Shown one piece after another: positions 27,724 to 47,122 of a DNA stretch of 64,000 nucleotides (its first letter is position 1; each line of letters opens with the position of its first letter). The notes beneath the pieces were generated by a model. It had not been told where the DNA came from, made no database searches, and saw only the letters and a list, made by a program, of their open reading frames with translations. Source of the DNA: Trueperaceae bacterium (GTDB taxonomy: Bacteria; Deinococcota; Deinococci; Deinococcales; Trueperaceae). The position numbers and the translations under genes are program-made. The stretch spans positions 1 to 64,000 of the forward strand of contig JAXHNB010000002.1 in assembly GCA_034520945.1 (NCBI GenBank), written 5' to 3'.

Positions 27724-27845
27724 TCGAAGCCCTTTCATCCAGCTACCGGTGCGGGCGGGGACGCGTTGCGAAGCTGGAAGAGACAACGCGGCTCCGTCGA
27801 TCGAACACGTTGTGGAACGCAAAAGAATCGTAGCGTACCTACTCC

Positions 27846-27874
27846 AGCGTAGGGCCGGATTCACGGCCTGTCAA
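27846..27874 (-). promoter_or_regulatory. Sigma70-type promoter of the 22-27.7 kb operon
   Basis: TTGACA-17 nt-TACGCT on the minus strand. Confidence 0.7.
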
Positions 27875-27938: not shown

Positions 27939-27968
27939 GGGGGCGCTCCCTCAGGGGGCGCTCCCTCA
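27939..27968. repeat. 15-bp tandem duplication (GGGGGCGCTCCCTCA x2)
   Basis: Exact copies at 27939-27953 and 27954-27968, including the ROK stop codon. Confidence 0.8.
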
Positions 27969-28967
27969 GGCCGCGTGGCGCACCACGTCCAACGCGTGCA
28001 GCGCCGCTCCCAGGGCGCCGGCCTCCGTGCCCAGGCGCGCCGGCATCACCTCGGGCGGCATGCCACCCACCGTCGACGCGTAGGCGGTCAGCGTCCGGCG
28101 CAGCGGCGCCAACAGCGTGTCTCCCATGCCCGCCATTCCGCCGCCGACCACGATCCGGTCCACGCCCAGCAAGGTCGTCACGTCGGCCAGCCCGACACCC
28201 AGCACCTCCGCCACCCGGTCGATCGCGTCGCGGCAGTGCGCGTCCCCCACCTCCGCCGCCTCTGCGATCCGCGCCGGCGTCACGCCGTCGAAGCGGTCTC
28301 CGGCCAGCTCCCGCAGGCGTGGCGTGCGGCCCTGCGCGAACGGCCGCATGACCGACGCCACCAGGGCGGGCGCCGAGGCGTAGGTCTCGACGCAGCCGTG
28401 GCTGCCGCAGCCGCACAGCGGGCCGTGCGGGTCGTAGGTGTGGTGACCGAACTCGCCGGCGTTGCCGTTGGCACCGAGGTATAGCGTCCCGTTCAGCACG
28501 ATGCCGCCCCCGACGCCGGTGCCGAGGGTGACGCCGAACGCGGACCGCGCGCCCACGGCCGCGCCGACGCGCGCCTCTGCCAGCGCGAAGGCGCGCGCGT
28601 CGTTGACGACCACGGTCCGGTGGCCGGTCGCCCGTTGCACCTCGTCGGCCAGGTCGAGGCCGCGCCAGCCCGGCGCGAAGTTCGGCAGCACGTCGATCCG
28701 CCCGTCCGGCGTCATGGCGGCGGGGATGGCGATGCCCACCGCCGCGACGTCGCCCGCCGCCGTGGCCTGGGCGCGGATCTCCTCGGCGACGTCGCCAAGC
28801 ACGGCCTCGCGGGAGCGGTCGGCCCCGGTGGGGCGGGTACCGAAGCCCTGCAGGGCCGTGCCGCCACGAGCGAGGCGCCCGACCTTGGTGGTGGTGCCAC
28901 CGAGGTCGACCCCGACGATCCAGGACACGTCTTCGTCGGTCCACGTCGCGGCGTGTGCATGGTTCAT
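27966..28967 (-). CDS. ROK family sugar kinase
   Basis: GVDLGGT, NDA, LGTGVGGG, GEFGH and CGCGSHGC; no HTH; TATAGT 6 nt before ATG (leaderless). Confidence 0.92.
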   Translation of the reverse strand: MNHAHAATWTDEDVSWIVGVDLGGTTTKVGRLARGGTALQGFGTRPTGADRSREAVLGDVAEEIRAQATAAGDVAAVGIAIPAAMTPDGRIDVLPNFAPGWRGLDLADEVQRATGHRTVVVNDARAFALAEARVGAAVGARSAFGVTLGTGVGGGIVLNGTLYLGANGNAGEFGHHTYDPHGPLCGCGSHGCVETYASAPALVASVMRPFAQGRTPRLRELAGDRFDGVTPARIAEAAEVGDAHCRDAIDRVAEVLGVGLADVTTLLGVDRIVVGGGMAGMGDTLLAPLRRTLTAYASTVGGMPPEVMPARLGTEAGALGAALHALDVVRHAA

Positions 28968-29166
28968 GGGGTGACTATACGGGTGCCGGCCACGGTTCCC
29001 AGGGCCTGGGACCGGACGAACCCTTCGAAGGGCGGCGATTCGGTCCCGTGTCCGGTGCCAAGAGGGTGGGGCGGTGACGTAGAGTGGTCGGACTGCTCGG
29101 TGGAGACGGGGTGCACGCGCCGCGCCTCCCTCCGACCCGCCCGATTCACGCCGACGAGGAGGCCCC

Positions 29167-29967
29167 ATGGCGCACCCCGTATCGCCCGACACGCCCGACG
29201 TTGCCCAGCGCTACCTGCAGGAGGCGGAGAACGTTCTGCATCGCGTGCGGGACACGCAACTCCCGGCGATCCGCGAAGCCGCCGCCCTCTGCGCCGACAC
29301 GATCGCGCAGCGCGGGCTGGTGCACCTGTTCGGCTCGGGCCACTCCCGCATGGCGGTGGAGGAGGTGTTCCCCCGTTACGGCAGTTTCCCCGGCTTCCAT
29401 CCCATCGTCGAGCTGTCGCTCACCAACCACACGCAGGTGGTGGGCGCCAACGGGCAGCGTCAGGCGATGGCGATCGAGCGGATGGAGGGGCTGGGCGAAC
29501 CGATCCTGAACAACTTCGTGTTCCGCGACTACGACGTGATGATGGTGTTCTCCACCTCCGGCAACAAGGGCGTGCCGGTCGACGTGGCGTTGGGCGCCAA
29601 GGCGCGCGGCCTCACGGTCATCGCGGTGGTCGCGGCCACGTACGTGGCGGAGTTGTCCTCGGAGCACAGTTCGGGACGCAAGCTGACCGACATCGCCGAC
29701 CTGGTGATCGACAATTGCGCGCCCCCAGGCGACAGCATGGTGAGCGTGCCGGGCGTCGACGCGCGGGTGGGGCCCGGCTCCACCATCGGCAACACCGCCG
29801 TCGTGAACACCCTCAAGGTGCTGGTGGCGGAGGACCTGGCCGCGCGCGGCCAGCCGCCGCTGGTGCTGGCTTCTGCGTACGAGATCGGGGCGGAGGCCGC
29901 CCGCGCACGGTTCGAAGCCGCCTACGACGACTACCGGGACCGCATGAAGGTCGTGTATGGCGGGTGA
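29167..29967 (+). CDS. SIS-domain protein (sugar-phosphate isomerase-like)
   Basis: HLFGSGHS, FSTSG and ADLVIDN; GAGGAGG RBS. Confidence 0.88.
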   Translation: MAHPVSPDTPDVAQRYLQEAENVLHRVRDTQLPAIREAAALCADTIAQRGLVHLFGSGHSRMAVEEVFPRYGSFPGFHPIVELSLTNHTQVVGANGQRQAMAIERMEGLGEPILNNFVFRDYDVMMVFSTSGNKGVPVDVALGAKARGLTVIAVVAATYVAELSSEHSSGRKLTDIADLVIDNCAPPGDSMVSVPGVDARVGPGSTIGNTAVVNTLKVLVAEDLAARGQPPLVLASAYEIGAEAARARFEAAYDDYRDRMKVVYGG

Positions 29968-30736
29968 GGCGGGCCAAGGGTTTACAGGCGCGCGCGTGCT
30001 GGTGACCGGCGCCTCCGGCATCGGCGCGGCCGCCGCGGCGCGGTTCCACGCCGCCGGCGCGCACGTGTTCGTGGCCGACGCGGACGCGAAACGGGTGGCG
30101 TCGCTACGGGCGGACCTGGACGGCGTGCACGGGGCGGCCGGGGACCTGGCCGACGAGGACACGGCACGCGCGGTGGTGGACCAGGCGCTCGACGCCTTGG
30201 GCGGCTTGGACGTGCTGGTGAACGTGGCGGGCATGTCGGGCCGGCGCTACGGCGACGGGCCGGCGCACGAGGCGACCGCCGAGGGGTGGGAGGTGGTGAT
30301 GCGCAACAACGCCCGCTCCACCTTTCTGATGTGCCGGTTCGCGCTGGCGCCGATGCGGGCGCAGCAGCGCGGCGTGATCACGAACACCGGCTCGGTGCTG
30401 GCGTACGCGCCAGGCGCGGCGCACTTCGCGACGCACGCCTACGCCGCCTCGAAGGGCGCCATTCACGCCCTGACGCGCAGCATGGCGGCCACGTACGCCC
30501 CCGAGGGCATCCGCGTCAACGCGGTCGCGCCGGGCCTGATCGCGACGCCGATGAGCCAGCGGGCGCAGAGTGATCCCGCCATTCTCGACTACCTGCGCGG
30601 GCGGCAACCGGTGACGGGTGCGCCGGGCGAGGCCGGCGACGTCGCCGACGCGATTCTCTACCTCGCCTCCGATCAGGCGCGCTTCGTCACCGGTACGATT
30701 CTGGAAGTGGCGGGCGGATGGAGCGTGGCGGGATGA
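29957..30736 (+). CDS. SDR family oxidoreductase
   Basis: VTGASGIG, NVAG, YAASK and VNAVAPG. Confidence 0.93.
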   Translation: MAGEAGQGFTGARVLVTGASGIGAAAAARFHAAGAHVFVADADAKRVASLRADLDGVHGAAGDLADEDTARAVVDQALDALGGLDVLVNVAGMSGRRYGDGPAHEATAEGWEVVMRNNARSTFLMCRFALAPMRAQQRGVITNTGSVLAYAPGAAHFATHAYAASKGAIHALTRSMAATYAPEGIRVNAVAPGLIATPMSQRAQSDPAILDYLRGRQPVTGAPGEAGDVADAILYLASDQARFVTGTILEVAGGWSVAG

Positions 30737-32037
30737 GCCAGACGGATCGGATCGAGCTTCGCTGGGACGTGCCGGTGGCGCACGACTGCGACGTGCTGGT
30801 GATCGGCGGCGGCTCGGCGGGCTGCAGCGCCGCGGTCGCGGCGGCGGAGCAGGGCGCGCGCGTGACGCTGGTCGAGCGGCAGGGCTTCCTCGGCGGCACC
30901 GGCGCCATGGTGCTGGACACCTTCTACGGCTTCTACACGCCCGGCACGGTCGAACGCAAGGTCGTCGGTGGCGTTCCCGACCGCGTGATCGAAGGGCTGG
31001 ACCGGCGCGGCATGGTGCTGAAGCGCCCCAACACCTACGGTGCCGGCGCCGGCCTCACCTACGACCCCGACACGCTGAAGCTGGTGTGGGACGAACTGGT
31101 GTGGGGCGCAGGGGTGCAGGTTCTCCACCACGTCACGTTCACAGACGCGCTGCGCGACGGCCACCGCGTCACCGGCGCGGTCCTGGCCACCAAGCAGGGC
31201 CTGCGCGCCATCCGCGCGCGGGCGGTGGTGGACGCCTCGGGCGACGCGGACGTGGCCGCCCGCGCCGGCGCGCCGTTCGACGATGCCGGCGCGGCGGGCA
31301 CCGCCCAGGCGCTGACCACCACCTTCCGCATGATCGACGTGGACGTCGAGCGGGCGCGGGCGTTTCCGAAGAAGGAGCTGTGGGCCCGCATGCACGAGGC
31401 CGCCGAACGCGGCGACTACGACCTGCCGCGGCGCGAGGGCAGTTCGCACGTGACGCCGTTCCCGAACGTGATGCACACCAACATGACGCGCGTGGCCGGC
31501 GTGGACGCCACCGATCCCGAACAGCTCTCCCACGCCGAACGGGAGGGGCGGCGACAGGCGTTCGAGTACGCCCGCTTCCTGCGCGAGCAGGTGCCCGGGT
31601 ACGAGAAGGCCCACCTGAGCGGCCTGTCGGTGCAGATCGGCGTGCGCGAGAGCCGCCGCATCCAGGGCGAGTACTGGCTCACCCGCGACGACGTCCTGGC
31701 CGCCGCCCGCTTCCCTGACGCCGTGGCGCGCTGCGGCGCCCCCATCGAGGAGCACCATGCCGGCGGCGACACGCGCTGGGAGTACCTGGCCGACGGCGAG
31801 ACCTACGACATTCCGTATCGCTGCCTGCTGCCCCGCGAGGTGGAGGGCCTGGTCGTGGCGGGGCGTTGCCTCTCCGCCTCGCACGACGCGCACGCCTCGG
31901 TGCGCTCCATGGGGCAGTGCCAGGCGATGGGCCAGGCGGCCGGCGTGGCGGCGGCGTTGGCGGCGGACGGCGACCTTCGGGGCGTGGACACCGAGGACCT
32001 GCGCGCGCGGCTGCAGGCGTTGGGAGCATTGTTGTGA
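30733..32037 (+). CDS. FAD-dependent oxidoreductase (FAD_oxidored family)
   Basis: VIGGGSAG, DASGDAD, GVRESRRI, YDIPYRCL and GQAAG. Confidence 0.9.
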   Translation: MSQTDRIELRWDVPVAHDCDVLVIGGGSAGCSAAVAAAEQGARVTLVERQGFLGGTGAMVLDTFYGFYTPGTVERKVVGGVPDRVIEGLDRRGMVLKRPNTYGAGAGLTYDPDTLKLVWDELVWGAGVQVLHHVTFTDALRDGHRVTGAVLATKQGLRAIRARAVVDASGDADVAARAGAPFDDAGAAGTAQALTTTFRMIDVDVERARAFPKKELWARMHEAAERGDYDLPRREGSSHVTPFPNVMHTNMTRVAGVDATDPEQLSHAEREGRRQAFEYARFLREQVPGYEKAHLSGLSVQIGVRESRRIQGEYWLTRDDVLAAARFPDAVARCGAPIEEHHAGGDTRWEYLADGETYDIPYRCLLPREVEGLVVAGRCLSASHDAHASVRSMGQCQAMGQAAGVAAALAADGDLRGVDTEDLRARLQALGALL

Positions 32038-34528: not shown

Positions 34529-35794
34529 ATGGAACGCATCCGCCGTCTCGCCCTCGCCCTCGCCGCCCTCGCCTTCGCCGCTGCTGGGCTGGCCCAGACC
34601 GAGGTCACCGTCTGGTTCCACAGCGGCAAAGGACCCGAACGCGAGGCCCTCGCCGCCCAGGTCCAGGCGTTCAACGCCCAGCAGGACCAGTACCGGGTGG
34701 TGGCCGACCAGTTGCCGGAAGGCACCTACAACGATCAGGTCCAGGCAGCCGCGCTGTCGAACGACCTGCCCTGCCTGCTGGACTTCGACGGCCCCTTCAT
34801 CTACAACTACGCGTGGAGCGGCTTCCTGCAACCCATCGACCGCTACGTGAGCGACGACCTTCGTGCCGACGTGCTGCCCAGCATTCTGGACCAGGGCACC
34901 TACGCGGGCGACCTGTACAGCCTGGGCACCTTCGATAGCGGTCTGGGCATCTACGCCAACCGGCGCTACCTGGAAGCCGCCGGCGTGCGCATCCCCACCG
35001 GCGTCGAGGACGCATGGACGCTGGAGGAGTTCGAGGACGCGCTCGCGAAACTCACCGCCTTGGACGAGGTGGAGTACGCGCTGGACCTCAAGTTCAACTA
35101 CGGCCAGGGCGAATGGTTCACCTACGGCTTTGCGCCCATCCTCTGGAGCGCGGGGGCCGGCCTGGTGGACCGGGACGGGTACCAGAACGCGGACCCGTTG
35201 CGTAGCGACGAAGCGGTCACCGCCATGGAGCACTTCCAGAGCTGGTTCGAGAACGGCTGGACCACCAACGCGCCCGCCGGCGACGTCGACTTCCACGAAC
35301 GCCAGGTCGCCGCCATGTCCTGGGTCGGGCACTGGCAGTACAACTCCCACGTCGAAGCCCTCGGCGACGACCTGGTGCTGGTACCGCTTCCCGACTTCGG
35401 GACCGGCTCCAAGACCGGGCTCGGCTCCTGGAACTGGGGCATCACCACCAGCTGCAGCGAACCCGACGGCGCATGGGCGTTCCTCGAGTTCCTGATGCAG
35501 CCCCAGGAGATCCTCCGCATGACCGACGCCAACGGCGCGGTCCCCGCGCGCTTCTCCGCCATCGAGATGTCGGAGCTGTACGGCGGGGACGGCCCGCTGT
35601 CCCTGTTCGTCGACCAGCTCGAGTCGTCGGCGGTCGCACGCCCGCAGACGCCGGCCTACCCGGTGATCACCGACGCGTTCGCCGAGGCGGTCGCCAACAT
35701 CGCGAGCGGCGCCGACGTCGAGGCGGAGCTGAACCGGGCCGCCGACCGCATCGAACAGGACATCGAGGACAACCGGGGCTACCCCACCGACTGA
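34529..35794 (+). CDS. Oligosaccharide ABC transporter substrate-binding protein (CUT1)
   Basis: Signal peptide, LPCLLDFDGP and GSWNWGI; GGAGG RBS; followed by two permeases. Confidence 0.93.
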   Translation: MERIRRLALALAALAFAAAGLAQTEVTVWFHSGKGPEREALAAQVQAFNAQQDQYRVVADQLPEGTYNDQVQAAALSNDLPCLLDFDGPFIYNYAWSGFLQPIDRYVSDDLRADVLPSILDQGTYAGDLYSLGTFDSGLGIYANRRYLEAAGVRIPTGVEDAWTLEEFEDALAKLTALDEVEYALDLKFNYGQGEWFTYGFAPILWSAGAGLVDRDGYQNADPLRSDEAVTAMEHFQSWFENGWTTNAPAGDVDFHERQVAAMSWVGHWQYNSHVEALGDDLVLVPLPDFGTGSKTGLGSWNWGITTSCSEPDGAWAFLEFLMQPQEILRMTDANGAVPARFSAIEMSELYGGDGPLSLFVDQLESSAVARPQTPAYPVITDAFAEAVANIASGADVEAELNRAADRIEQDIEDNRGYPTD

Positions 35795-35809
35795 CCCGAG
35801 CGCCGGACG

Positions 35810-35843
35810 GCGACGGGCCCGCCACCACGGACGGGTCCGTCGC
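35810..35843 (+). terminator. GC-rich hairpin after the SBP gene (mRNA stabiliser or partial terminator)
   Basis: GCGACGGGCCCG..CGGGTCCGTCGC stem; no U-tract. Confidence 0.4.
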
Positions 35844-35885
35844 TCCCGCAGCATGTCCGCGTACCGCGTCCGTGAGGAGGCCTTC

Positions 35886-36830
35886 GTGAGCTCGACGTCG
35901 CCCTCGCCCCCACGGCCTCTCGGCCGGCGGCGCACGCTCCGCCAAAGCGAAGCGCGCGCCGCATGGGCCGTGTCGCTGCCCGCCCTGCTGCTGCTGACGG
36001 TGTTCCTGATCGTGCCGTTCGTGCTGGCGTTCGTGCTGGCGTTTACCGACCAGCGCCTCATTCCAAACCCCCGGCTGCCGACGGAGTTCGTGGGGTTGCG
36101 CAACTTCCGGCGCATCCTCGAGGACCCCACCTTTCAGCGTGCGCTGCTGAACAACTTCGCGTTCGCCGCGTTCGTCGTGCCGCTCCAATCCGCCCTGGCG
36201 TTGGGCATGGCGATGCTGGTCAACCGCCGCATCCGCGGCTCGCTGGTCTTCCGCACCATCTATTTCTCGCCGGTCGTCACCACCATGGTGGTGGTCTCGG
36301 CCATATGGTTCCTGCTGTACAACCCCGACGAAGGGTTCATCAACGCGTTCCTCAGCGCGATCAGCTTCGGGACCATCCCCGCCATCGAATGGCTCCAGGA
36401 CACCCGGACCGCGCTGCTCGCGATCGGCATTCTCTCCGTCTGGCAGGGCGTCGGCTTCCAGATGGTGATCTTCCTGGCCGGGCTGCAGGAGATCCCCGTC
36501 CAGCTCTACGAAGCGGCACGCATCGACGGCGCCAATCGCGTGCAGACGTTCTGGAACATCACCCTTCCCAGCCTGCGAAACACCACCATCTTCGTGATCA
36601 TCTCCACCACCATCCTGGCGTTCCGCCTCTACGACCAGGTCAAGATCATGACGCAGGGAGGTCCGCAGAACGCGACCCAGACGGTCGTCTATCAGATCGA
36701 GCGGGTCGGGTTCTCGCAGTTGCGGGTCGGCTACGCGTCGGCGCTGACGGTGGTGTTCTTCCTCATCGTGCTGGCCGTGGCGATGCTGCAACGGCGCTTC
36801 CTGCGCGAGGAGAGGACGGTGCGCGAATGA
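35886..36830 (+). CDS. Carbohydrate ABC permease (MalF type)
   Basis: FVGLRNF and LYEAARIDGA; GAGGAGG before GTG 35886. Confidence 0.94.
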   Translation: MSSTSPSPPRPLGRRRTLRQSEARAAWAVSLPALLLLTVFLIVPFVLAFVLAFTDQRLIPNPRLPTEFVGLRNFRRILEDPTFQRALLNNFAFAAFVVPLQSALALGMAMLVNRRIRGSLVFRTIYFSPVVTTMVVVSAIWFLLYNPDEGFINAFLSAISFGTIPAIEWLQDTRTALLAIGILSVWQGVGFQMVIFLAGLQEIPVQLYEAARIDGANRVQTFWNITLPSLRNTTIFVIISTTILAFRLYDQVKIMTQGGPQNATQTVVYQIERVGFSQLRVGYASALTVVFFLIVLAVAMLQRRFLREERTVRE

Positions 36831-37666
36831 CGCGGGAGAACCTGGCGCGCAACCTGCTCGACTACCTGTTCATGACGGTGTTGGCCGCCTTCTTCCTGTT
36901 CCCCGTCGTCATCATGCTGGTCGCGAGTTTCAAACCGGACGACGGCATGATCATGCGGCATATGAGTTCACCGCTGGCGTTCGTCCCGACCGAGGTCTCG
37001 CTGCAGAACTACCGCGACGTGTTCGACAACGTCGCCTTCCTCACGGCGATGCGCAACTCGGTGCTGATCGTCGGGTCGATCGTGGGCGTCGGCCTGTTCG
37101 TCAACAGCCTGATCGCCTACGGCCTGGCGCGCTTCCGCTTTCGGGGGCGCAACCTCCTGGTCGGCCTCGTCATCGCGCTGATCATCATTCCGTTCGAGTC
37201 GATTGCCGTGCCGCTGCTGCTGCTCGTCAACCGCTTCGGCTGGTTGAACACCCTCTACGTCCAGGCGATTCCGTTCATCGCCGACGCGTTCTCGATCTTC
37301 CTGTTCTATCAGTTCTTCATCCAACTGCCCGCCGACCTGGAAGAGGCCGCCATCGTCGACGGCGCCAGCCGCCTGCGGATCTACTGGTCGATCCTGCTGC
37401 CGCTCTCGCGCCCGATCATCGCGACGGTCACCATCCTGCTGTTCCTGCGCCACTGGGGACAGCTGCTGTGGCCGGTCATGGTGGCCCGCAGCGAGGAGGT
37501 ACGCCCCCTGACGGTCGCCATGCAGCAGTTCTTCGGGCAGCAGCCACGGGAGTGGGGCCAGATCATGGCGTTCGCAGCCATGATCACCATCCCCGTGCTG
37601 ATCGTGTACCTTTTGTTCAACCGCTGGTTCGTGCAGAGCATCGCCTCGAGCGGCGTCAAGGGATGA
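36827..37666 (+). CDS. Carbohydrate ABC permease (MalG type)
   Basis: AYGLARFRF and LEEAAIVDGA; ATGA overlap. Confidence 0.94.
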   Translation: MTRENLARNLLDYLFMTVLAAFFLFPVVIMLVASFKPDDGMIMRHMSSPLAFVPTEVSLQNYRDVFDNVAFLTAMRNSVLIVGSIVGVGLFVNSLIAYGLARFRFRGRNLLVGLVIALIIIPFESIAVPLLLLVNRFGWLNTLYVQAIPFIADAFSIFLFYQFFIQLPADLEEAAIVDGASRLRIYWSILLPLSRPIIATVTILLFLRHWGQLLWPVMVARSEEVRPLTVAMQQFFGQQPREWGQIMAFAAMITIPVLIVYLLFNRWFVQSIASSGVKG

Positions 37667-37706
37667 GTTCCACGATCCCGAACGCCCGGCCCGACGGTCG
37701 CCGGCC

Positions 37707-39155
37707 GTGACGGCGCCGGTGGGCCTTCACTTCGATCCCGAGCACGGCCTGTTCGGCGACCCGAAGCCCATCGCCTGGAACGGCCGCTACCACGTGTTCT
37801 TCCAGAACGCGCCGCGCCCCGACCAGTTCGACGCCATGCGCTGGGCGCACGTGGTCAGCGACGACCTGTTGCGCTGGAGGCGACTTCCCGACGCGTTGAC
37901 GCCGGACGCGGAGGGCCCCGATCGTTGCGGCTGCTGGACCGGCAGCGTCGTGCGTCACGAAGGGGTGTTCCACGCCTTCTACACCGGCGTGGCCGGACCT
38001 GACGGGCACGGGCAGAGCGTGTGCCGGGCCGAGAGCGACGACCTGATCCACTGGCGCAAGGACCCCGGAAATCCCCTCGTGGTCCCGGCGGCGCCGTTCG
38101 CGACCGGACCCGACGCGGCCTGGCGTGACCCGCAGGTGCGGCCGTTGCCGGAGGGCGGCTTCGAGATGGTCCTGACGGCCGACACGGCCGAGGGCCCGCG
38201 AAGCCTGCGCGGGTGCGTGGCGCGCCTCACCTCGTCCGACCTGCGGCGCTGGGCCGTCGATGGGTTGCTGTACCACCCCGGGGACGTGCACCGGTGCGAG
38301 TGTCCCGACGTCGTCCCGATGGTCAGCGGCTACGCATTGCTGTATTCCTCCTACGGGGTGGCGCTGCGCACCTCCGACACCCCGCGCGGCCCGTGGCGCA
38401 AGCCCCCCAACGCCCTCCTGGACGACTTCCGGTACTACGCCGCCAAGACCACCTCGGTCGACGGCCGCCGGCTGATGTTCGGCTTCCTGTTCGATCGACG
38501 GTCCCAGGACGGCGCGCCCGGCGACGGCAGCCCCTGGACCTGGGGCGGCGTGATGGCGTTCCCCCGCGAGCTGACGCTGGACGGGGTCGGCGCCCCCGCC
38601 CTGCGGCCGGTGGCCGAACTGCGGGCGTTGCGGCAGGACCCCGTGGCGCTCGGGTTCGACGCGAACGTGGCCGTGACGGGTGCGTGGTCGTGCGGAGACG
38701 ACGGCGTCGCGGGCGAGGCGCGTCCGGGCCGCGAAGAGCTCGCCGTCGCCCGGATGGGCCGCCAGCCCCAGCAGGCCGAGATCGAGCTGCGGATCCGCTG
38801 GGCACCCGATGGCACGGCGGGGCTGCTACTGCAGGCCGACGCCGCGCTCGGGCAGGGCTATTTGGTCGAACTGGACCGGGCGCGCCGCGACGTGGGCCTG
38901 CGGCGCCTGTTCCCCCACGCCAACCCGGCCAGCGTCGTGCTGCAGCGCATGGAGCTGCCGCCGGACCTGGACGACGAGATCGGCCTGCGAGCGTTTCTGG
39001 ACCGAACGGTATTGGAGCTGTTCATCGACGACCGCGTCGCGTTCAGCGCCCGCCTGTACCAGCGTCCCAGCGAGGCGTGGTGGGGGTTGGCCACGCGGGG
39101 GAGGCTGTGGACCTCCCTGCCGGAGGTGTGGCGCTTGGGCATGGCCCCGCGGTGA
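37707..39155 (+). CDS. Glycoside hydrolase family 32 (beta-fructofuranosidase-like)
   Basis: FGDPKP (NDPNG variant), WAH..SDDL, WTGS, WRDP, CECPD and YAAKT; C-terminal LELF beta-sandwich. Confidence 0.88.
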   Translation: MTAPVGLHFDPEHGLFGDPKPIAWNGRYHVFFQNAPRPDQFDAMRWAHVVSDDLLRWRRLPDALTPDAEGPDRCGCWTGSVVRHEGVFHAFYTGVAGPDGHGQSVCRAESDDLIHWRKDPGNPLVVPAAPFATGPDAAWRDPQVRPLPEGGFEMVLTADTAEGPRSLRGCVARLTSSDLRRWAVDGLLYHPGDVHRCECPDVVPMVSGYALLYSSYGVALRTSDTPRGPWRKPPNALLDDFRYYAAKTTSVDGRRLMFGFLFDRRSQDGAPGDGSPWTWGGVMAFPRELTLDGVGAPALRPVAELRALRQDPVALGFDANVAVTGAWSCGDDGVAGEARPGREELAVARMGRQPQQAEIELRIRWAPDGTAGLLLQADAALGQGYLVELDRARRDVGLRRLFPHANPASVVLQRMELPPDLDDEIGLRAFLDRTVLELFIDDRVAFSARLYQRPSEAWWGLATRGRLWTSLPEVWRLGMAPR

Positions 39156-39168
39156 CCGGCGCGGCCGC

Positions 39169-40125
39169 CTACCCCCATCCAGCGGCGCACGCGTCGGCGT
39201 CCACGCCCAGCGCCACCAGCGACAGGTAGGCCGCCCCCAGCTCGGGTGTCGTCCATGGCGTCACCGGTTCGGCGCCCCGGTCGCGAAGCGCCGCCTCGAA
39301 CGACCGCCGCACCTCCGCGTTGCCGCGCAACACGCCTCCGGAGCCGGCGACCCGCGCGGTCCCCGCCCGGGCGCCGGCGACCAGCGCCTGCTCGGCCAAC
39401 TGCCGCCCCGCCTCGGCGAGCAGGGCCGCGGCGCCCGCGTCGCCTTCCCCAGCCAAGCGGCCGACCTCTTCGGCGAACCGGGCGTGGTGACCGAGGGGCA
39501 ACGCCGGGTCGTACAGGACGTTCACGAGCCGGCGCGTCCGTTCGGACGGCGGCGCGCCCATGGCCACCCCCGCGTACGCCGCCAGCGTCCGCAGCATGGA
39601 GGTTTCCTCCGCCCGGTCCATGTCGTGCAGGGCGGAGGCGATGGCCCGTCGCGCGATCCAGTAGGCGCTGCCCTCGTCGCCGAAGCGGGGCCCCCAGCCG
39701 CCCACGCGGACCCGCTCGCCGGAGGGGCCGAAGGCCAGGCACTGGCTGCCGGTACCCGCCACCACGCACACGCCGGGCGCGCGCCCGAAGGCGGCGGCGT
39801 GGGCAATGCGCGCGTCGCTGTCGACCAGGACGTTGTCGGCTCCGATCAGCTCACGCCAACGCGTGCGTTCGTCCGCCTCTCCCGCCATGATCAGCCCCGC
39901 GATTCCGAGCGTGACGTGCCGGACCCGTCCGCGCGCTTGGTCCCGCACGGCGTGGACGGCAGCGAGGACGGCGTCGCGGCTGGCGCGCTCGCTTGTGGTA
40001 CGCGGGTTGCCGGCCTGCCGCTCGGCGCGGCCTAGGATGCGGCCGGCCAGCGACACCGCCACCGCCCGCGTGTACGTGCCGCCCACGTCGATGCCGAGGA
40101 CCAGCTCCTCGCCCGCGTCGCTCAC
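39169..40125 (-). CDS. BadF/BadG/BcrA/BcrD-family kinase, N-acetylglucosamine kinase-like
   Basis: GIDVGGT, SDA, AGTGS and GGWG..GDEGSAYWI. Confidence 0.88.
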   Translation of the reverse strand: MSDAGEELVLGIDVGGTYTRAVAVSLAGRILGRAERQAGNPRTTSERASRDAVLAAVHAVRDQARGRVRHVTLGIAGLIMAGEADERTRWRELIGADNVLVDSDARIAHAAAFGRAPGVCVVAGTGSQCLAFGPSGERVRVGGWGPRFGDEGSAYWIARRAIASALHDMDRAEETSMLRTLAAYAGVAMGAPPSERTRRLVNVLYDPALPLGHHARFAEEVGRLAGEGDAGAAALLAEAGRQLAEQALVAGARAGTARVAGSGGVLRGNAEVRRSFEAALRDRGAEPVTPWTTPELGAAYLSLVALGVDADACAAGWG

Positions 40126-40856
40126 AACGTGCGGACCCGGCCGCGCCAGTACGCCAGCCGTTCGGGCGACAGCGGCTCCGCCCCCTCGGTGTTGGCGCTG
40201 GCGAAGACGTCCGGCGCGGCGCCGCGTTCCAGCAGCCGCTCGGTGGCACGCGCGATCGCCGCGTTCAAAGCGAAGACGCAGGCGATCGTGCTGAGCGGTC
40301 CCACCCGCAGGCCCTCGGTCCCCACCGGCACCGCGGCGTCGCCGTAGGGGACGCCCGTGTCGACGACGAGGTCGGCGACGTCGGGCAGCTTCGCTCCGCT
40401 CGGATCGCGAGACGACACCTGCGTGACGTGCGCCAGGCTGGTGAGGGCCACCACCGTCGCGCCGCGGGCCCGGCCGCTGCGGGCCGCTTCGACGGGATAG
40501 GCGTTGCGGCCCGAGTTCGAGGCCACGACCAGCAGGTCCCGCGCGCCGATGCCGGCGTCCGCCACGACCGCGTGGGCGATGCCGGGCAGGCGTTCCAGCG
40601 CGCTGCTCCGTACCGCCCCCTCGTGCAGCATCAGCCCGGGGACCAGCAGCGGGTGCACCGCAGCCAGACCGCCGGCGCGGTAGAACGCCTCCTCGGCGAC
40701 CATGTGCCCGTGCCCGCTGCCGGTCACGTAGATCAGGCCGCCTTCCGCCACGGTGTCGGCCAGTAGCGCCGCGAAGCGTTCCAGTACCTCGCGCCGCTGG
40801 TCGAGCCCATCCAGCAGCTCCTGCACGGCGCGGTGGTAGGCGTCCAGGGCGCTCAT
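40122..40856 (-). CDS. SIS-domain protein
   Basis: TGSGHGH..EEAFYRAGGL and SNSGRN. Confidence 0.88.
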   Translation of the reverse strand: MSALDAYHRAVQELLDGLDQRREVLERFAALLADTVAEGGLIYVTGSGHGHMVAEEAFYRAGGLAAVHPLLVPGLMLHEGAVRSSALERLPGIAHAVVADAGIGARDLLVVASNSGRNAYPVEAARSGRARGATVVALTSLAHVTQVSSRDPSGAKLPDVADLVVDTGVPYGDAAVPVGTEGLRVGPLSTIACVFALNAAIARATERLLERGAAPDVFASANTEGAEPLSPERLAYWRGRVRTL

Positions 40857-41470
40857 ACTCGGCCCCCTTCCGGCGCCTCCGGCGGGAGGAGCCCCATGAT
40901 GCACGCGTCCTCCTCGTCTTCCAGGTCGCGAAAGCCGAGGTGCCGATAGAAGCCGATGGCGCGGTGGTTGCGGCGCGCCACCCCGAGGTGGACGCCCCGG
41001 CTGCCCGCGTCGAACAGCGAGGCCAGCACCGCCTCCATCATCCGCCGGCCGAAGCCGCGCCCTTGGGCCGGGGGCAGCAGGTCCAGGTGGAGGTGGGAGG
41101 GGTAGCCTTCCAGGCGCGCAGGCGGGGTACGCGGCGGGTCGTGAAGCGACGCCACCAGCGCCGCGTCGGCGGCCGGACGTTGCGCGCGGCGGGGGTACAT
41201 GGCCCGCAGCGGCGGCCACCAGCGCGCTTCGCAGCGCGCCTCGAACGTGGCGGTGTCCAGCGCGCCGAGGGCGTAGCCGAGGACCTCGTCGCCTTCGCGC
41301 AGTACGAAGGCGTGCCGCGGTTCCAGGGCGAGGTACGGCCCGACGTAGAGGTGGCCCAGCAGGTTGGGATCGGCGAACGTGCCGGTCGCATCCTCGCCGG
41401 CGTCGCCCGTGGCGAGGCAGACGCTGTAGGCGCCGGCGAAGTCGGCCGGCCGGTAGGGATGGACCTTCAC
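40853..41470 (-). CDS. GNAT acetyltransferase resembling the OGA C-terminal acetyltransferase-like domain
   Basis: VCLATGDAG, YVGPY, YPSHLHLDLLP and QGRGFG (acetyl-CoA loop); GTGA overlap with GH84. Confidence 0.88.
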   Translation of the reverse strand: MKVHPYRPADFAGAYSVCLATGDAGEDATGTFADPNLLGHLYVGPYLALEPRHAFVLREGDEVLGYALGALDTATFEARCEARWWPPLRAMYPRRAQRPAADAALVASLHDPPRTPPARLEGYPSHLHLDLLPPAQGRGFGRRMMEAVLASLFDAGSRGVHLGVARRNHRAIGFYRHLGFRDLEDEEDACIMGLLPPEAPEGGRV

Positions 41471-42789
41471 CGGGGCACGCACCCGTCGCGGCCAAGGGGC
41501 AGGAGGCCTTGAAGCTCGTCCAGAACACCAGTGCGGTAGGTGTTGGCGAGCCCGTGCGGGCGGCAGAGCCGTCCCGTGCCCGTCTGCGCCAGCCGGGCGC
41601 CCACCTCGGCCTCCTCCTTCAGGTCCCAGGCGTAGGGGTAGAGGGCGTAGGCCAGCTCGCGACGGGTCAGTTCGGTCACGCCGACGTACGCCGCCCGTAG
41701 CTGCTCGGCGGCGCGTGCGAGGGTGGCGGCGACCTCCGGGGGTGCGGTGCGTGGATCCGCCGCCAGCACCCGTAGGGCGTCCAGGTGCGCGCGGGCGCGG
41801 GGACCGTGCGCGAAGGGCAGGTGGAGGTAGTCGACGAGCACCTCCAGGAGCTCGCGGTCCAGGTGCCCGTCGTGGGTCGCGAAGCGCGGCCACCAGGCGT
41901 CGATGGCGGCGCGGAAGCTGGACTCGGCCGCGTCCGGCGTGTCCGCATGGCCCCGCAGCCACGCGGCCGTGGTGTGCAGTGGCACGAAGTTGGCTTCGGC
42001 CTCGACGTTGGGGTTGCTGATCACCCCGCGCAGCTGGGCGCGTAGCTCGGGGGGGCGGCCGCGGTAGGGACCCAGGTACAGCCTGCGCCCGTCGTAGTCG
42101 TTGGCGTGGAGGTTGTCCCAGAGGACCGGTTTTCGGCCCAGGGTGCGGCCCATCCGGGCGGCGGCCTCGGGCGGCACCCGCTCGCTGACGATCTCGGGGC
42201 CCGTCCAATAGACGTCGATGCCGGGATGCAGGTCCTCGCCGAGCGTTCGCAAGTAGGGGCTCTCCTCCGGGGAGGGGTCGGCCATTCGGTCGCAGTACTC
42301 GGTCGGGCACAGCAGCAGCGGGACACCGCCCCTGTCCTGGAGGTGGGCGTGAAGCTCGTTGGCGACGTCCGCCTGGGCGTGGGCGGGGGAAGGGAACGCC
42401 CGGGCATCGGCCGGGGACAGGGCCGGGTCGATGTCGTCGAACAGCAGGGTGACCCCCTCGGCGCCGAAATCCAGGACCTGGTCCACCTTCGCCCGCAGCG
42501 CCCGGCGGTCGTCGGGATCGGCGTAGCGCAGGTCCAAACCGGGCGCGATGGCGTAGTGCAGCGCGACGCCGTGCGTGCGGGCTTCGCGCGCCAACGCCCC
42601 TAGCTCGCGCGCCTCCTCCTGGTCGTAGGAGAGGCGCCAGGCAGCCCGGACCTTCACGTCGTCCTTGGGCCCGTAGACGTAGGTTGTCATGTCCCAAGCG
42701 GCCAGGTCGCCCAGTAGTTCGCGGCGTTGCGCGGGTCGCCACGGCCGGCCGTAGAAGCCTTCGATGACGCCGCGGTAGGGAAGGGGCAC
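41467..42789 (-). CDS. GH84 beta-N-acetylglucosaminidase (O-GlcNAcase-like)
   Basis: GVIEGFYGRPW, YGPKDD, LLFDDI (catalytic DD), CPTEY, WTG and WDNLHANDYD; no signal peptide. Confidence 0.93.
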   Translation of the reverse strand: MPLPYRGVIEGFYGRPWRPAQRRELLGDLAAWDMTTYVYGPKDDVKVRAAWRLSYDQEEARELGALAREARTHGVALHYAIAPGLDLRYADPDDRRALRAKVDQVLDFGAEGVTLLFDDIDPALSPADARAFPSPAHAQADVANELHAHLQDRGGVPLLLCPTEYCDRMADPSPEESPYLRTLGEDLHPGIDVYWTGPEIVSERVPPEAAARMGRTLGRKPVLWDNLHANDYDGRRLYLGPYRGRPPELRAQLRGVISNPNVEAEANFVPLHTTAAWLRGHADTPDAAESSFRAAIDAWWPRFATHDGHLDRELLEVLVDYLHLPFAHGPRARAHLDALRVLAADPRTAPPEVAATLARAAEQLRAAYVGVTELTRRELAYALYPYAWDLKEEAEVGARLAQTGTGRLCRPHGLANTYRTGVLDELQGLLPLGRDGCVPR

Positions 42790-42799
42790 GAAAACCTCC

Positions 42800-43636
42800 T
42801 CAGTCCAGCGAGCCCACCGTGAGGCCCGCGATGATCTGGCGTTGGAAGATGAAGTACACGACGAGGATGGGCACCGTCGCGATGCTGAGGGCCGAGAAGA
42901 CCAGCTTGTAGTCCACGCTGTAGTGGCCGTAGAAGGCCAACAGGCCGGCCGGCAGCGTACGGGTCGCCTCGTCCCGGACGAACAGCAGCGCGAAGAGCAG
43001 TTCGTTCCAGAGGTTGACGGCGTTGAGGATCGCCATCGTCACCAAGGCGGGCCGCACCAGGGCAGCATCAGCGTGCCAGAAGGTGGCGGCCAGTCCGGCG
43101 CCGTCGATGCGGGCGGCGTCCTCCAGTTCGCCGGGCAGTGTCCGGTAGAACGAGCGCAGCAGGTAGATCGTCAGCGCCATCGGCCAGCTGGCGTAGGGGA
43201 GGATCAGCGCCAGGTGCGTGTCCAGAAGGCCCATGTCCCGGAGCTGCACGAACAGCGGGATCACCACCGTTTGCGGCGGCAGGAGCAGTCCGATCAGGAA
43301 CAGGTAGAACAGGGCGTCGCGGCCCGGGAACCGCAGGCGGGCGAACGCGTACGCCGCCATGCTGGCCAGGGCCACCAACACGGCGACCGCGACGCCGGTG
43401 ACGAAGAGGCTGTTGAGGTACAACCGCCCGAGGTCGCCCACGGTCCACGCCTCGACCCAGTTGGACCACTGAGGCGCCTCGGGCAGGCCGAAGGGGTGAG
43501 CGAAGATCTCCTGGTTGTCCTTGAGCGAGGAGTACAGCATCCACGCCAGCGGGAACGCCATCCCGGCCACCACCGTGAGCACGACCCACAGGTGCAAGAT
43601 CGCGGCGGGGGTGCTGCGTCGTTCAGTACTCGACAC
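42800..43636 (-). CDS. Carbohydrate ABC permease (MalG type)
   Basis: AAYAFARL and LEDAARIDGA; probable compensating indels near 43060-43075. Confidence 0.93.
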   Translation of the reverse strand: MSSTERRSTPAAILHLWVVLTVVAGMAFPLAWMLYSSLKDNQEIFAHPFGLPEAPQWSNWVEAWTVGDLGRLYLNSLFVTGVAVAVLVALASMAAYAFARLRFPGRDALFYLFLIGLLLPPQTVVIPLFVQLRDMGLLDTHLALILPYASWPMALTIYLLRSFYRTLPGELEDAARIDGAGLAATFWHADAALVRPALVTMAILNAVNLWNELLFALLFVRDEATRTLPAGLLAFYGHYSVDYKLVFSALSIATVPILVVYFIFQRQIIAGLTVGSLD

Positions 43637-44552
43637 GGGACCTCCCCTGGGTGAGACGCAGGTACGCGATGCTCAAAAGCCCGACGACAACCGTCATGAT
43701 CACGGTCAGGGCGACGCCGTAGCCGAAGCGTCCGCGGTCGAACGCCTGCTTGACGATCCAGGTCGTGGGGATCTCGGTGGCGTTGAACGGGCCGCCGCCC
43801 GTCATGGCGAAAAACAGATCGAACGCCGCGAAGCCCCCCGTCACGCACAGCAGCACGGTGACGATCGTGGTTTCCCGCAGTAGGGGGAGCGTGACGCGGA
43901 AGAACTGCTGCAGCGGTCCCGCGCCGTCCAGGCGGGCGGCTTCGTAGAGGGTGGGCGGGATCCGCCGCAGCGCGGCCAAGTAGATGATCATGTAGAAGCC
44001 CGCGTACTTCCAGCCGCTCACCAGCGTCACGGCGGCCAGCGCCGTCTTCGGGTCGGACAGCCAGGCCCGCGTGAGGGTCCCCAGGCCGACGGCCTCGAGG
44101 GCGCCGTTGAGCAGGCCGAAGCGTAGGTCGTACACGAACGCCCACAGTAGGCCGGCCGCCACCATGGACAGAACCATGGGGGAGAAGAACAGCACCCGCA
44201 GGAGGCCGAACCCGCGACGCTCGGCGTTCAGCAGGACCGCCATGACGAGCCCGAAGGCGACCTCGACCACCAGCGTGCCCAGGATGTAGAGGCCGACGTT
44301 CAGATAGGAGCGTAGGTAGATACCGTCGTTCAGTGCGCGCAGGTAGTTGCGCCAGCCGACCCACTCCGCCGGGCTGATGCCGTCCCAACGGGTGAAGCCG
44401 TAGTACAGACTGGCGCCGAGCGGCAGCAGCACGAAACCACCGAAGAGCAGCAGCGCCGGCAGCACGAAGAGGTACGCCTGCCAGCCGTCGTTGCGGCCGG
44501 AGGGCGCGGCCACGGCCGCGCCCCGGTCCGTCCTGGAACGTGCTTCAGTCAC
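43623..44552 (-). CDS. Carbohydrate ABC permease (MalF type)
   Basis: WVGWRNY, LYEAARLDGA and GGGPFNAT. Confidence 0.93.
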   Translation of the reverse strand: MTEARSRTDRGAAVAAPSGRNDGWQAYLFVLPALLLFGGFVLLPLGASLYYGFTRWDGISPAEWVGWRNYLRALNDGIYLRSYLNVGLYILGTLVVEVAFGLVMAVLLNAERRGFGLLRVLFFSPMVLSMVAAGLLWAFVYDLRFGLLNGALEAVGLGTLTRAWLSDPKTALAAVTLVSGWKYAGFYMIIYLAALRRIPPTLYEAARLDGAGPLQQFFRVTLPLLRETTIVTVLLCVTGGFAAFDLFFAMTGGGPFNATEIPTTWIVKQAFDRGRFGYGVALTVIMTVVVGLLSIAYLRLTQGRSRVEY

Positions 44553-45827
44553 GTTCCTGTCGCAGGGGCTCCAGCTGCTGATCGATCCACGCCAGCGCTG
44601 CCTCCGCGTCGCGCGCGCCGCTCGCGGCCATGGCCGCGCCCTCGTAGAAGACGTCGGCTACCTCCACGGGGTAGCCAGTGTCGGGCGGCGGGACCAGCGC
44701 CGTGGCCGACTCGAAGATCTCGGCCAGCTCCTGCGTATGAGGGTCGAGGTCGGCGACGTCCATCGCGCCCTCGATGGGGCTGAATTGGCCAGCCTCCGCC
44801 CACAGGCGTTGGTTTTCGAGCGAAGCGGCGTAGAAACGAAGGAAGGCCACCGCCTCGTCGAAGTGCTCCGTGTCCGCGCTGACCTCGAAGCCGGTCGCCA
44901 GCCCGATGACGCTGCCCGAGGCGCCGCGCCCGCCGGGGATCTCGGGCGTGTTGAACACGGAGTAGGCGAAGTCGTCGGGCGCGTTGTCGTTCGCGATCGC
45001 CACCAGCCAGGAGCCGATCGGGTGCATCGCCGCCGCGCCTTGGAAGAAGGCGTTCATCGCCGCGTCCGGCGCCGAGGCTGGTCATGTCCGCGTTGAACGC
45101 CCCTGCTTCGGCGAGCTCTTCGAAGAGCGTGAACGCCTCCACGAACGCCTCCTGCTGGAAGGGTTCCTCCAGGCGCAGGGCCGCGTCCAGCAAATCCATG
45201 CCGACGACCCGCTCGGTGACGTGGCCTGCCCAGTTCCCCAGCGGCCACAACTCCACATTGCCGATCACGAACGGCGTGACGCCCGCATCGGCCAGGACCG
45301 TCACGATCTCGACCAGGTCGTCCCAGGTCTCTGGGGGCTCGAGCCCGTGCTGGTCGAAGATCTCGGTGTTGTACCAGATGGCGGTGGTCACGTCGAGCGA
45401 GTTGGGCAGCATGTAGATGCGTCCGTCGACGGTGGTGCCGGCCCGCTCGCTCCAGGAGGCGTCGACGAACCAGTCGGCGAAGCCCGCCCGCCTCGGTGGC
45501 CTCGGTCAGGTCGGCGGCGAAACCCTGGCGGGCGTCGCGCGTGACGAGTTCCCCACCCCACTGGAAGAAGATGTCCGGCGGATCGTCGCTCTGCAACATG
45601 GTGATCAACCCGGCGTCCTCGTAGAGGTCGTCGTCCTGGACCACCTGGTCGATGGTGATGTCGGGATGCAACGCCTCGAAGGCGTCGACGATCCGGTCGA
45701 AGGTGGCGCGGTGGGCGCCGCCGGTCATGGCGTGCGCGATGGTGAGCTCGGTCTGGGCGGCGGCCCAGGGCAGCAGGAGCAGCATTGCCAGGCAGGTGGC
45801 GACGAGGGACGTTCGCAGCTTGGTCAT
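44545..45827 (-). CDS. Carbohydrate ABC substrate-binding protein, split by two apparent frameshifts (~45485, ~45070)
   Basis: Three consecutive ORF pieces (signal peptide+PPDIF; IWYNTEIF..PETWDDL; FFQGAAAM) form one SBP. Confidence 0.82.
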
Positions 45828-45886
45828 GGGGATCCTCCAGGGGCGCGGGTCGCGCCGGTCGGGACGGGGATGGGGCGGCGGGAACG

Positions 45887-47122
45887 TCAACGGCGCATGG
45901 GTGCCTCCTCTCCAGGACGGGCGCGGGGCAGACGCCTCCGCACCAGGCTGCCGTCGCGAAGAATGTCGTCGAGAACGCCGACGGCCGCACCACGTGCGCC
46001 CGCGTTGGCGGGCAGGGCGGCGTAGGTGACGTGGAGCCTCTTGCCAAGGGGCCGCAACAGCCGCATCCGCAGCGTCTCCGACAGAAGGTTGGGGAGCGTG
46101 TCGCCCGTCGCCCGCACGTCGCCGCCCAGCACGATGGTGGTGGCCCCCGTTACGCTGATCGCGCTGGTGAGCGCGCGGGCTAGGTGTTCATTGAGTTCGT
46201 GAACGACTAGGGTCGCGACCTTGTCGCCCCGGCGGGCGGCCTCGGTGAAGCGTGAGAACGTCGCGCCCGGTCGCAGCTCGCTGTCGACGCCCTGCGCCAA
46301 GTACGCCTCCGCGTGGGCGATCAGCGCTTCGTGGGTGGCGAGGGTCTCCAGGCAGCCCACGTTGCCGCAGCGGCAGCGCTCTCCGTCGGGTCGCACCGAG
46401 ACGTGCCCGATTTCGCCGCAGATGCCGGTGCGGCTCCGGATCAAGTTCCCGTCCGCGAAGATGCCGCTTCCGACGCCGTCGCGTCCCAGGAAGAGGTAGA
46501 GCATGTCCGGCGCGTTGCGACCGGCGCCGAAGCGGTGCTCGGCGTCGGCGAAGGCACGGGACACGTCGTCGACCCGGACCGGAACGTCGAGCCGTTCCTC
46601 CAGGATGCGACGCGCAGGCACCGAGCCGCCACCGTGCTCCTTGGGCTGCCAGTGGCCGTCGCTGGTGACGACGTGGTGCAAGGCGGCGCCTACGCCGGCC
46701 GGTTCGGGCAGGCGATGCTTCGCCACGAACGCCTTCACCCGGCGGACGAGCCGGTCGAGCAGCGCCCGGTCGATCGGGCCGCCCTCGCGCCGCACGTCCT
46801 CGGCGATGGCCTCGCCGTGCGCGTCGCAGGCGACCAGGCGGGTTTGCCCGCCCCCGGCCTCGACGCCGATCGTCACGGCAGCGTCGGCGCGCAGCCGAAG
46901 GTGCTGGGTGGGCCGTCCGGGCCGCTCCGGGGGTTCGTCGTGAAGGCCGTCGAGGACGCCCGCGTCGATTAGCTCTCGGGTGATGCGGGAGACGCGGCTC
47001 GGGCTCATGCCGGTGCATTCGGCCAACGCGGCCCGGGTGTCGGCCGCACCCTCATGGACGAGGGAAGCCAGTCGGACGGCATGCGCCGTGCGCGCCGAGG
47101 GCGTGGCCACGCGGTGCGTCAT
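45887..47122 (-). CDS. ROK family transcriptional regulator (NagC/XylR-like)
   Basis: N-terminal HTH (TRAALAECTGMSPSRVSRITREL), GRP and GEIGH..CRCGNVGCLE. Confidence 0.92.
   Translation of the reverse strand: MTHRVATPSARTAHAVRLASLVHEGAADTRAALAECTGMSPSRVSRITRELIDAGVLDGLHDEPPERPGRPTQHLRLRADAAVTIGVEAGGGQTRLVACDAHGEAIAEDVRREGGPIDRALLDRLVRRVKAFVAKHRLPEPAGVGAALHHVVTSDGHWQPKEHGGGSVPARRILEERLDVPVRVDDVSRAFADAEHRFGAGRNAPDMLYLFLGRDGVGSGIFADGNLIRSRTGICGEIGHVSVRPDGERCRCGNVGCLETLATHEALIAHAEAYLAQGVDSELRPGATFSRFTEAARRGDKVATLVVHELNEHLARALTSAISVTGATTIVLGGDVRATGDTLPNLLSETLRMRLLRPLGKRLHVTYAALPANAGARGAAVGVLDDILRDGSLVRRRLPRARPGEEAPMRR

Follow-up and report, generated by a model that had tools for sequence, protein, structure and literature searches.

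What does the acetyltransferase-like half of O-GlcNAcase (OGA) do? Human and other metazoan OGA is built from a family 84 glycoside hydrolase (GH84), a stalk and a pseudo-acetyltransferase (pHAT) domain, and for this last domain, as for its relatives OgpAT and SsAT in bacteria, no acceptor has come to light since the structures of 2013. The question arises again in a 64,000-nucleotide stretch of DNA from a Trueperaceae bacterium (assembly GCA_034520945.1, contig JAXHNB010000002.1, positions 1 to 64,000), referred to here as the window. Positions 39169-47122 hold, on the minus strand, eight genes running head to tail, overlapping or with short gaps, and homologs of both halves of OGA are among them. 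Pfam gene calls bore out the layout suggested by an original prediction made from the letters of the window, namely a ROK regulator, an importer, GH84, a GNAT acetyltransferase, a SIS protein and a kinase. The predicted GTGA overlap between the GH84 stop and the GNAT start was seen in the sequence; an ATGA likewise joins the stop of the GNAT gene to the start of the SIS gene, and the open reading frame (ORF) coordinates place a four-base overlap between the SIS and kinase genes. Comparative genomics strongly supports a functional coupling of GH84, GNAT and the genes for uptake and processing of amino sugars.

The OGA homology of both halves is firm at the level of sequence, and the gene pair itself has already been published. 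Rao et al. 2013 (PMC3814719) described OgOGA and OgpAT of Oceanicola granulosus as adjacent genes, in an order like that of the domains of human OGA, and stated that their function was unknown, which confirms the adjacent pair cited in the original prediction. As in O. granulosus (2XSA, 3ZJ0), a GNAT of the same subfamily comes directly after a cytoplasmic GH84, with the P-loop and acetyl-CoA contacts kept. However, the O. granulosus pair was published as two genes only, whereas here it is embedded in an operon of eight genes that also encodes a ROK regulator, an importer, a SIS protein and a kinase. Our literature searches found no description of the pair within an importer/SIS/kinase operon, or of its recurrence.

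The GH84 protein (440 aa) is predicted to be a cytoplasmic β-N-acetylglucosaminidase of the OgOGA/human OGA type. A phmmer search matched it to OgOGA (2XSA, E-value 2.7e-95) and to human OGA (about 1e-94). Its residue 6 aligned to OgOGA residue 3, and the alignment spanned the helical bundle to residue 396. No signal peptide or extra domain was seen in the alignment to OgOGA, in agreement with the earlier claim that signal peptide and carbohydrate-binding modules are absent; the alignment starts too close to the N-terminus to leave space for one. The catalytic Asp pair D115/D116 of OgOGA aligned to D118/D119. This DD motif is described in PMC4683255, which in its passages on the GH84 mechanism names the substrate's own 2-acetamido group as the nucleophile.

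The GNAT is, by sequence and by structure model, a clear member of the OgpAT/SsAT/OGA-pHAT family. Matches in phmmer were OgpAT (3ZJ0, 3.7e-44), SsAT of Streptomyces sviceus (4BMH, 1.1e-36), human OGA in its C-terminal part (6.3e-20) and the Trichoplax domain (4.9e-12), and the next GNAT after this group reached 4e-4 only. A structure model built from 21 homologs (pLDDT 91.5) was compared by Foldseek, with TM-scores of 0.88 to 3ZJ0, 0.88 to 4BMH and 0.83 to the HAT-like domain of Trichoplax OGA (6R45), followed by about 0.54 for the next structure. The relationship to the OGA C-terminal domain proposed in the original prediction was thus recovered by both methods. The insertions typical of the family, a long loop between α1 and α2 and extra helices between β3 and β4 that form a tunnel (PMC3814719, section 3.2), are present in the model as a long loop at residues 21-36 and helices 73-91, 100-110 and 118-122 between strands 62-70 and 125-131. 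He et al. (PMC3919268), who reported the SsAT structure, described a tunnel-like acceptor site and proposed a small-molecule acceptor; their paper gives no genomic context for SsAT.

The GNAT looks active, unlike the metazoan pseudo-acetyltransferase. The intact QGRGFG loop of the original prediction is present as Q136-G-R-G-F-G141, fits the acetyl-CoA pattern [Q/R]-x-x-G-x-[G/A], and corresponds to OgpAT Q143-G148. Residues H126/H128, D130, N168, Y175 and H177 are kept, and correspond to OgpAT H133/H135, D137, N175, Y182 and H184; these positions are described for OgpAT and SsAT as acetyl-CoA-binding or candidate catalytic residues (PMC3814719, section 3.2; PMC3919268, section 4.3). The acetyl-CoA and candidate catalytic residues were invariant or nearly so in 21 GH84-linked homologs, with G139 and G141 invariant. 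In contrast, the metazoan pHAT has lost both the acetyl-CoA P-loop and the His pair, as described in PMC3814719, PMC3919268 and the relevant passages of PMC12494797. Metazoan OGA differs further in being one protein rather than the product of two genes, and the bacterial pair lies in a sugar-catabolic context. Complex prediction for GH84 and GNAT, with a 21-row alignment for each, returned an uninformative score of 0.00 in both runs.

To what extent the two genes keep company was examined in three sets of sequences. Among 61 relatives, the GNAT was present in 29 and GH84 in 10; all 10 GH84-positive genomes also contained the GNAT, which was adjacent in 6. The gene orders in relatives were SBP-permease-permease-GH84-GNAT-SIS in G028 (SBP, substrate-binding protein), GH84-GNAT-SIS in G002, ROK-GH84-GNAT-SIS-BadF in G024, and GNAT-SIS-BadF in G004, where the contig ends. 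A search of genome contigs (genome_contigs) gave 27 good loci, including 16 with GH84 directly upstream of the GNAT and 6 with too little flank. The GH84-linked loci belonged mostly to Verrucomicrobiota, with others in Planctomycetota and in one metagenome-assembled genome of the Bifidobacteriaceae. In Verrucomicrobia the GH84-GNAT pair is followed by an orphan EIIC permease of the cellobiose/chitobiose type instead of an ATP-binding cassette (ABC) importer. An EIIC of the phosphotransferase system without a nearby EIIB or EIIA was found in 9 of 18 annotated GH84-GNAT loci, directly downstream in 8, and the four EIICs scanned matched the lactose/cellobiose family TIGR00410 with 300-313 bits (cut-off 236).

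The metagenome GNAT loci (80 in total) contained GH84 in 19 cases, a NagS-like SIS gene in 18, both in 12, ABC genes in 8 and EIIC in 3. When only the 16 loci flanked by 3 kb or more on each side were counted, GH84 was present in 7, GH84 and SIS in 5, GH84, SIS and ABC genes in 3, and EIIC in 2, and the GNAT was alone in 7. A second gene order, found at L136, L141, L154 and other metagenome loci, has the GNAT divergent from a GntR/UTRA regulator, BadF kinase, SIS, GH84, SBP and two permeases. In a phylogenetic tree, most stand-alone actinobacterial GNATs separated from the group of the window GNAT, whose members are mostly GH84-linked; support for this split (82/95) is not strong. Because the gene set survives reshuffling and a change of both transporter and regulator type, it is good support for one shared pathway that starts with uptake. 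The original reading, which coupled GH84 and GNAT to amino-sugar uptake and processing, thereby gains strong comparative-genomic support.

Several further arrangements were recorded at these loci. A metagenome protein of 720 aa (P0005) contains fused GH84 and GNAT domains, and another of 380 aa (P0004) contains an ABC-permease domain and a GNAT, which may be a gene-calling artefact. At L141 the GNAT is followed by a GFO/IDH/MocA oxidoreductase. Two verrucomicrobial loci (L008 and L019) have a sugar aminotransferase of the DegT/DnrJ/EryC1 type after the GH84-GNAT pair, and L008 additionally has a type I phosphodiesterase and an EIIC.

The SIS protein is, as judged by its alignments, a NagS-like family member and not a NagS orthologue. 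Its matches were PDB 3CVJ (2.2e-45) and NagS (SCO4393, 9EOL; 1.3e-38, 136 bits over 215 residues), which belongs to the same UPF0309/PRK02947 family. NagS dehydrates N-acetylglucosamine 6-phosphate (GlcNAc-6P) and has four essential residues (Li et al. 2025, PMC12680351), namely H53, R64, E94 and D179, with S91 and N228 important (section 13). NagS H53, R64, S91, E94, S119, S121, D179 and N228 correspond to H49, R60, S85, E88, S113, S115, D173 and N222 of the SIS protein, so that the essential and important residues are common to both; NagS S54 is replaced by G50. NagS orthologues share at least 58.7% identity, occur in Streptomycetaceae only and lie beside dmdR1, divergent from it (PMC12680351), and the window SIS differs in these respects. 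The operon provides a natural context for NagS-like SIS proteins outside the Streptomycetaceae. The kinase scored 77 bits against the NCBIfam model NagK_SO3507, far below its cut-off of 370, and its PDB matches were S. tokodaii hexokinase 2E2N (7e-29), the N-acetylmuramic acid (MurNAc)/N-acetylglucosamine (GlcNAc) kinase 8ZO3 (4.8e-15) and human NAGK 2CH5 (6e-14).

The SBP gene of the window, which starts with an ATG preceded by GGAGGA, is split over three reading frames. The genome (G000; 3.47 Mb, 10 contigs, 97.36% complete, 5.13% contamination) contains a second full copy of the operon (C8:139312-147235), with ROK, intact SBP, two permeases, GH84, GNAT, SIS and BadF kinase, at 50-87% protein identity. 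Using the intact 448-aa SBP paralogue of contig C8 as the query, tblastn recovered three in-frame pieces in the window (73-79% identity), and nucleotide alignment to this paralogue located two +1 single-base insertions, near 45482 and 45068. In public-run contigs covering 44400-46000, the base at 45068 was missing in X1 and in X4 (from a second study) and the base at 45482 was missing in X1, at a low depth of about 3-5 with one contig per run. Because the missing bases match the frame changes exactly, we read the two frameshifts as assembly errors, and the importer is taken as intact. Similar indel errors may occur in other genes of the assembly. The best public run containing the stretch is labelled as a salt pan metagenome, and may be the source sample.

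Table 1. Genes of the operon in the window, in order of transcription.
Feature	Position	Strand	Evidence
ROK-family transcriptional regulator, first operon gene	45887..47122	-	PF00480 143.4 bits; weak MarR_2 helix-turn-helix, residues 22-58
CUT1-type ABC substrate-binding protein (SBP_bac_1)	44545..45827	-	SBP_bac_1 pieces between 45890 and 44545
ABC permease 1	43623..44552	-	PF00528 58.1 bits; 87% identity to C8 paralogue
ABC permease 2	42800..43636	-	PF00528 40.5 bits; 80% identity to C8 paralogue
GH84, OgOGA/human OGA type (barrel and helical bundle)	41467..42789	-	PF07555 256.9 bits (cut-off 25), residues 6-297
GNAT acetyltransferase, OgpAT/SsAT/OGA-pHAT family	40853..41470	-	phmmer and Foldseek
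SIS_2 protein, NagS/UPF0309 family (PRK02947)	40122..40856	-	PF13580 137.5 bits; NF002805 258.3 bits (cut-off 135)
BadF/BcrAD-family sugar kinase (same family as eukaryotic NAGK and bacterial MurK)	39169..40125	-	PF01869 100.4 bits (cut-off 31.5)

We propose, with slightly more confidence than doubt, that this is a ROK-controlled catabolic operon for the cytoplasmic breakdown of imported small β-linked amino-sugar oligosaccharides, built of β-GlcNAc or glucosamine (GlcN). Import of a β-linked amino sugar is suggested because the solved relatives of the SBP bind β-1,4-linked xylo- or chito-oligosaccharides, and because the alternative transporter is of the cellobiose/chitobiose type. A chito-type oligosaccharide (chitobiose-type or partly de-N-acetylated) would be the likeliest transported substrate, at odds that appear to us about even. 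The suggestion that the GNAT acceptor is GlcN or a GlcN-glycoside is a more tentative one.

In the proposed pathway, the ABC importer would take the glycoside into the cytoplasm, where the signal-less GH84 would cleave off the terminal β-GlcNAc, a reaction for which the 2-acetamido group is needed. The BadF-type kinase would then form the sugar 6-phosphate, and the NagS-like SIS enzyme would process the N-acetylhexosamine 6-phosphate. The GNAT would use acetyl-CoA to N-acetylate glucosamine units, either free or at the non-reducing end, thus enabling the three acetyl-dependent enzymes. The simplest, though tentative, reading of the GNAT is as the acetyl supplier, because GH84 needs the acetamido group, NagS takes N-acetylated sugar phosphates, and the kinase family includes GlcNAc and MurNAc kinases. 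The chb operon of E. coli follows a logic of deacetylase plus GH4, which the proposed GNAT step mirrors with the opposite sign, as it also mirrors the GH4 of csnR-K; the step agrees with the role of GlmA in Clostridium acetobutylicum.

Control by the ROK protein would fit such a pathway, as the classical GlcNAc regulators NagC, DasR and NagR belong to the ROK and GntR/UTRA families. The top NCBIfam model for the ROK regulator was NagC, with 153 bits, well below the cut-off of 650. Inverted-repeat scans upstream of the ROK gene gave a single weak 11-nt pair, in the C8 copy, and nothing in the window or G024; no operator common to the three was found.

A bolder extension, which we regard as speculative and probably wrong in at least part, is that importer, GH84, OGA-type GNAT, NagS-like SIS and NAGK-like kinase form a module that is widespread in bacteria and would be a route for amino-sugar oligosaccharides not described before. 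In this extension the GNAT would be a glucosamine or glucosaminide N-acetyltransferase and would make de-N-acetylated units cleavable by GH84, a NagS-type dehydratase would replace NagA/NagB, and metazoan O-GlcNAcase would be a fusion of a scavenging pair, with its pseudo-acetyltransferase a relic of a sugar N-acetyltransferase.

A similar layout among characterized systems is that of csnR-K of Streptomyces (PMC5635096; bioRxiv 10.1101/2023.09.20.558697), which, as described there, shares a ROK regulator, an SBP with two permeases, a cytoplasmic glycoside hydrolase and a kinase, for imported amino-sugar oligomers. In the description given in PMC5635096 the hydrolase is the GH4 enzyme CsnH and the kinase is CsnK, of the ROK family, whereas the operon here has GH84, a BadF-type kinase and an acetyltransferase. 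The idea that csnR-K might also have genes for a GNAT and a SIS protein was rejected, as the cluster consists of six genes, with a GH4 as its hydrolase.

A survey of the rest of the genome bears on the proposal in both directions. In the 97%-complete genome, searches for GH3, GH20 and GH18 found none, and the two GH84s (in the operon and on C8) were the only β-N-acetylglucosaminidases detected. The original prediction had pointed to the lack of nagA in the window. This stands, as no NagA-type amidohydrolase was found among the scanned ORFs of the window, but the argument built on it is weakened, since the genome carries nagA outside the window (C1:206769-207758, 227 bits, cut-off 225.65), along with genes of PF01182 (NagB/Pgl). 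A third copy of the GNAT (C2:123674-124267, 72% identity) stands alone between an MFS transporter and unrelated genes, which give no functional hint. A locus on contig C10 (C10:79689-91963, L103) contains a SIS gene that resembles MurQ but stays under the cut-off (261.5 bits, cut-off 302), together with a GntR/UTRA regulator, a CUT1 ABC importer, the exo-β-N-acetylmuramidase NamZ, a lactate permease and a D-2-hydroxyacid dehydrogenase, and looks from its gene content like a dedicated route for MurNAc, the peptidoglycan sugar.

Several observations weigh against the proposed pathway. With nagA and nagB-like genes at other loci, ordinary GlcNAc catabolism is already possible and needs no re-acetylation, and the genome showed no chitinase. 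Among solved structures, those nearest to the C8 SBP paralogue bind xylo-oligosaccharides (8XBA, 3VXB, 4G68, 3ZKK) as well as chitin oligosaccharides (7EHO), and the SBP matched NgcE with 65 bits only (cut-off 400). The distant NagS homologs that Li et al. tested were without activity on GlcNAc-6P (PMC12680351, section 10). The second operon copy could derive from a contaminating relative or a related strain, as C8 has a lower G+C content (0.686) and the assembly a contamination of 5.13%; the window is 70-76% G+C around the operon. In addition, GH84 is rarer than the GNAT family, which was present in 19 of 51 GH84-negative relatives, and the GNAT was alone at 17 of the first 20 loci taken from relatives. 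It was truly solo, despite full flanks, at 5 of the 27 genome-contig loci, and 52 of the 80 metagenome loci contained the GNAT only, although 37 of these had less than 3 kb on both sides.

Most members of the family stand alone, with pocket residues identical to those of GH84-linked copies, and the GNAT acceptor may therefore be a common metabolite unrelated to GH84. The corresponding alternative, that the GNAT does not act on sugars and either acetylates another small amine or is an acetyl-CoA-sensing partner that tunes the pathway, its link to GH84 being regulatory, appears unlikely to us, although it has points in its favor. The SsAT pocket fits a ligand of the size of serotonin, and unexplained density in it was never identified (PMC3919268, section 4.4). 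Regulation has precedents in human OGA, which the passages concerned of PMC12494797 describe as allosterically regulated by its pHAT domains, and in fungal Ngs1, in which, according to the description in PMC5063960, a GlcNAc-binding glycosidase-like domain is joined to a GlcNAc-activated GNAT. However, the 10 GH84-positive genomes among the 61 relatives never lacked the GNAT, translational coupling places it between two sugar enzymes, it remains part of the set in the reshuffled gene order, and every residue expected for catalysis is kept. Salvage of the cell-wall disaccharide GlcNAc-MurNAc is a still less probable reading, in which GH84 would replace NagZ, the kinase would be MurK-like, the SIS enzyme would act on a 3-O-substituted N-acetylhexosamine 6-phosphate, and the GNAT would re-acetylate. 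GlmA of Clostridium acetobutylicum, a glucosamine/glucosaminide N-acetyltransferase in an amino-sugar salvage operon, is said to have such a re-acetylating role. The lack of a detectable GH3 and the kinase match to 8ZO3 fit this reading, NagS is reported to be related to MurQ (PMC12680351, section 7), and a transporter, a kinase of the same family and a SIS enzyme occur together in murTKQ of T. forsythia, the MurK-MurQ pattern in the description of PMC10465942. MurK-MurQ(-GlmA) operons nevertheless differ from the operon here, as their SIS protein is of the MurQ clade rather than NagS-like and their GNAT is of another subfamily, and GH84 is a feature of the present operon. The SIS protein keeps the NagS residue set, its C8 copy scored only 19 bits on the MurQ model, and the genome has the separate C10 locus with a MurQ-like gene, NamZ and an importer.

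Reversible modification of proteins by O-GlcNAc inside the bacterium, as proposed for Thermobaculum terrenum, is by far the least probable of the alternatives. The GH84 is equally close to human OGA and to OgOGA, a peptide-binding groove is kept in OgOGA-type enzymes according to the part of PMC3814719 that deals with it, and T. terrenum has both an O-GlcNAc transferase (OGT) and an OGA (described in PMC4683255). However, no OGT of family GT41 (PF13844) was found in the 97.36%-complete genome, in a search whose control was positive in 2 of 14 genomes, and protein O-GlcNAc cycling is unlikely because of this. The gene also lies inside an operon with an importer and a sugar kinase, and its relatives adjoin importers in several phyla. 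The locus therefore argues against protein O-GlcNAc cycling in these bacteria, and speaks for the use of imported amino sugars as food, not for protein signalling. For the pathway of amino-sugar breakdown that we favor, the recurring gene set narrows the candidate acceptors of the GNAT to a short list that can be assayed, and offers a testable lead to the function of the acetyltransferase half of OGA.

Other sugar-related genes lie near the operon in the window. A sucrose/fructan-type cluster (34529-39155), with an SBP, two permeases and a GH32 hydrolase, converges on the operon, with the GH32 gene facing the kinase end. Further away, another ROK gene (27966-29192, minus strand) runs divergently from another SIS_2 gene of the NagS family (29167-29967), which is followed by a short-chain dehydrogenase/reductase (29957-30736) and an FAD-dependent oxidoreductase (30718-32037). 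A sugar importer of the Peripla_BP_4/BPD_transp_2 type (25686-27864) adjoins this second ROK/SIS_2 locus, and the two SIS proteins of the window share 37% identity.

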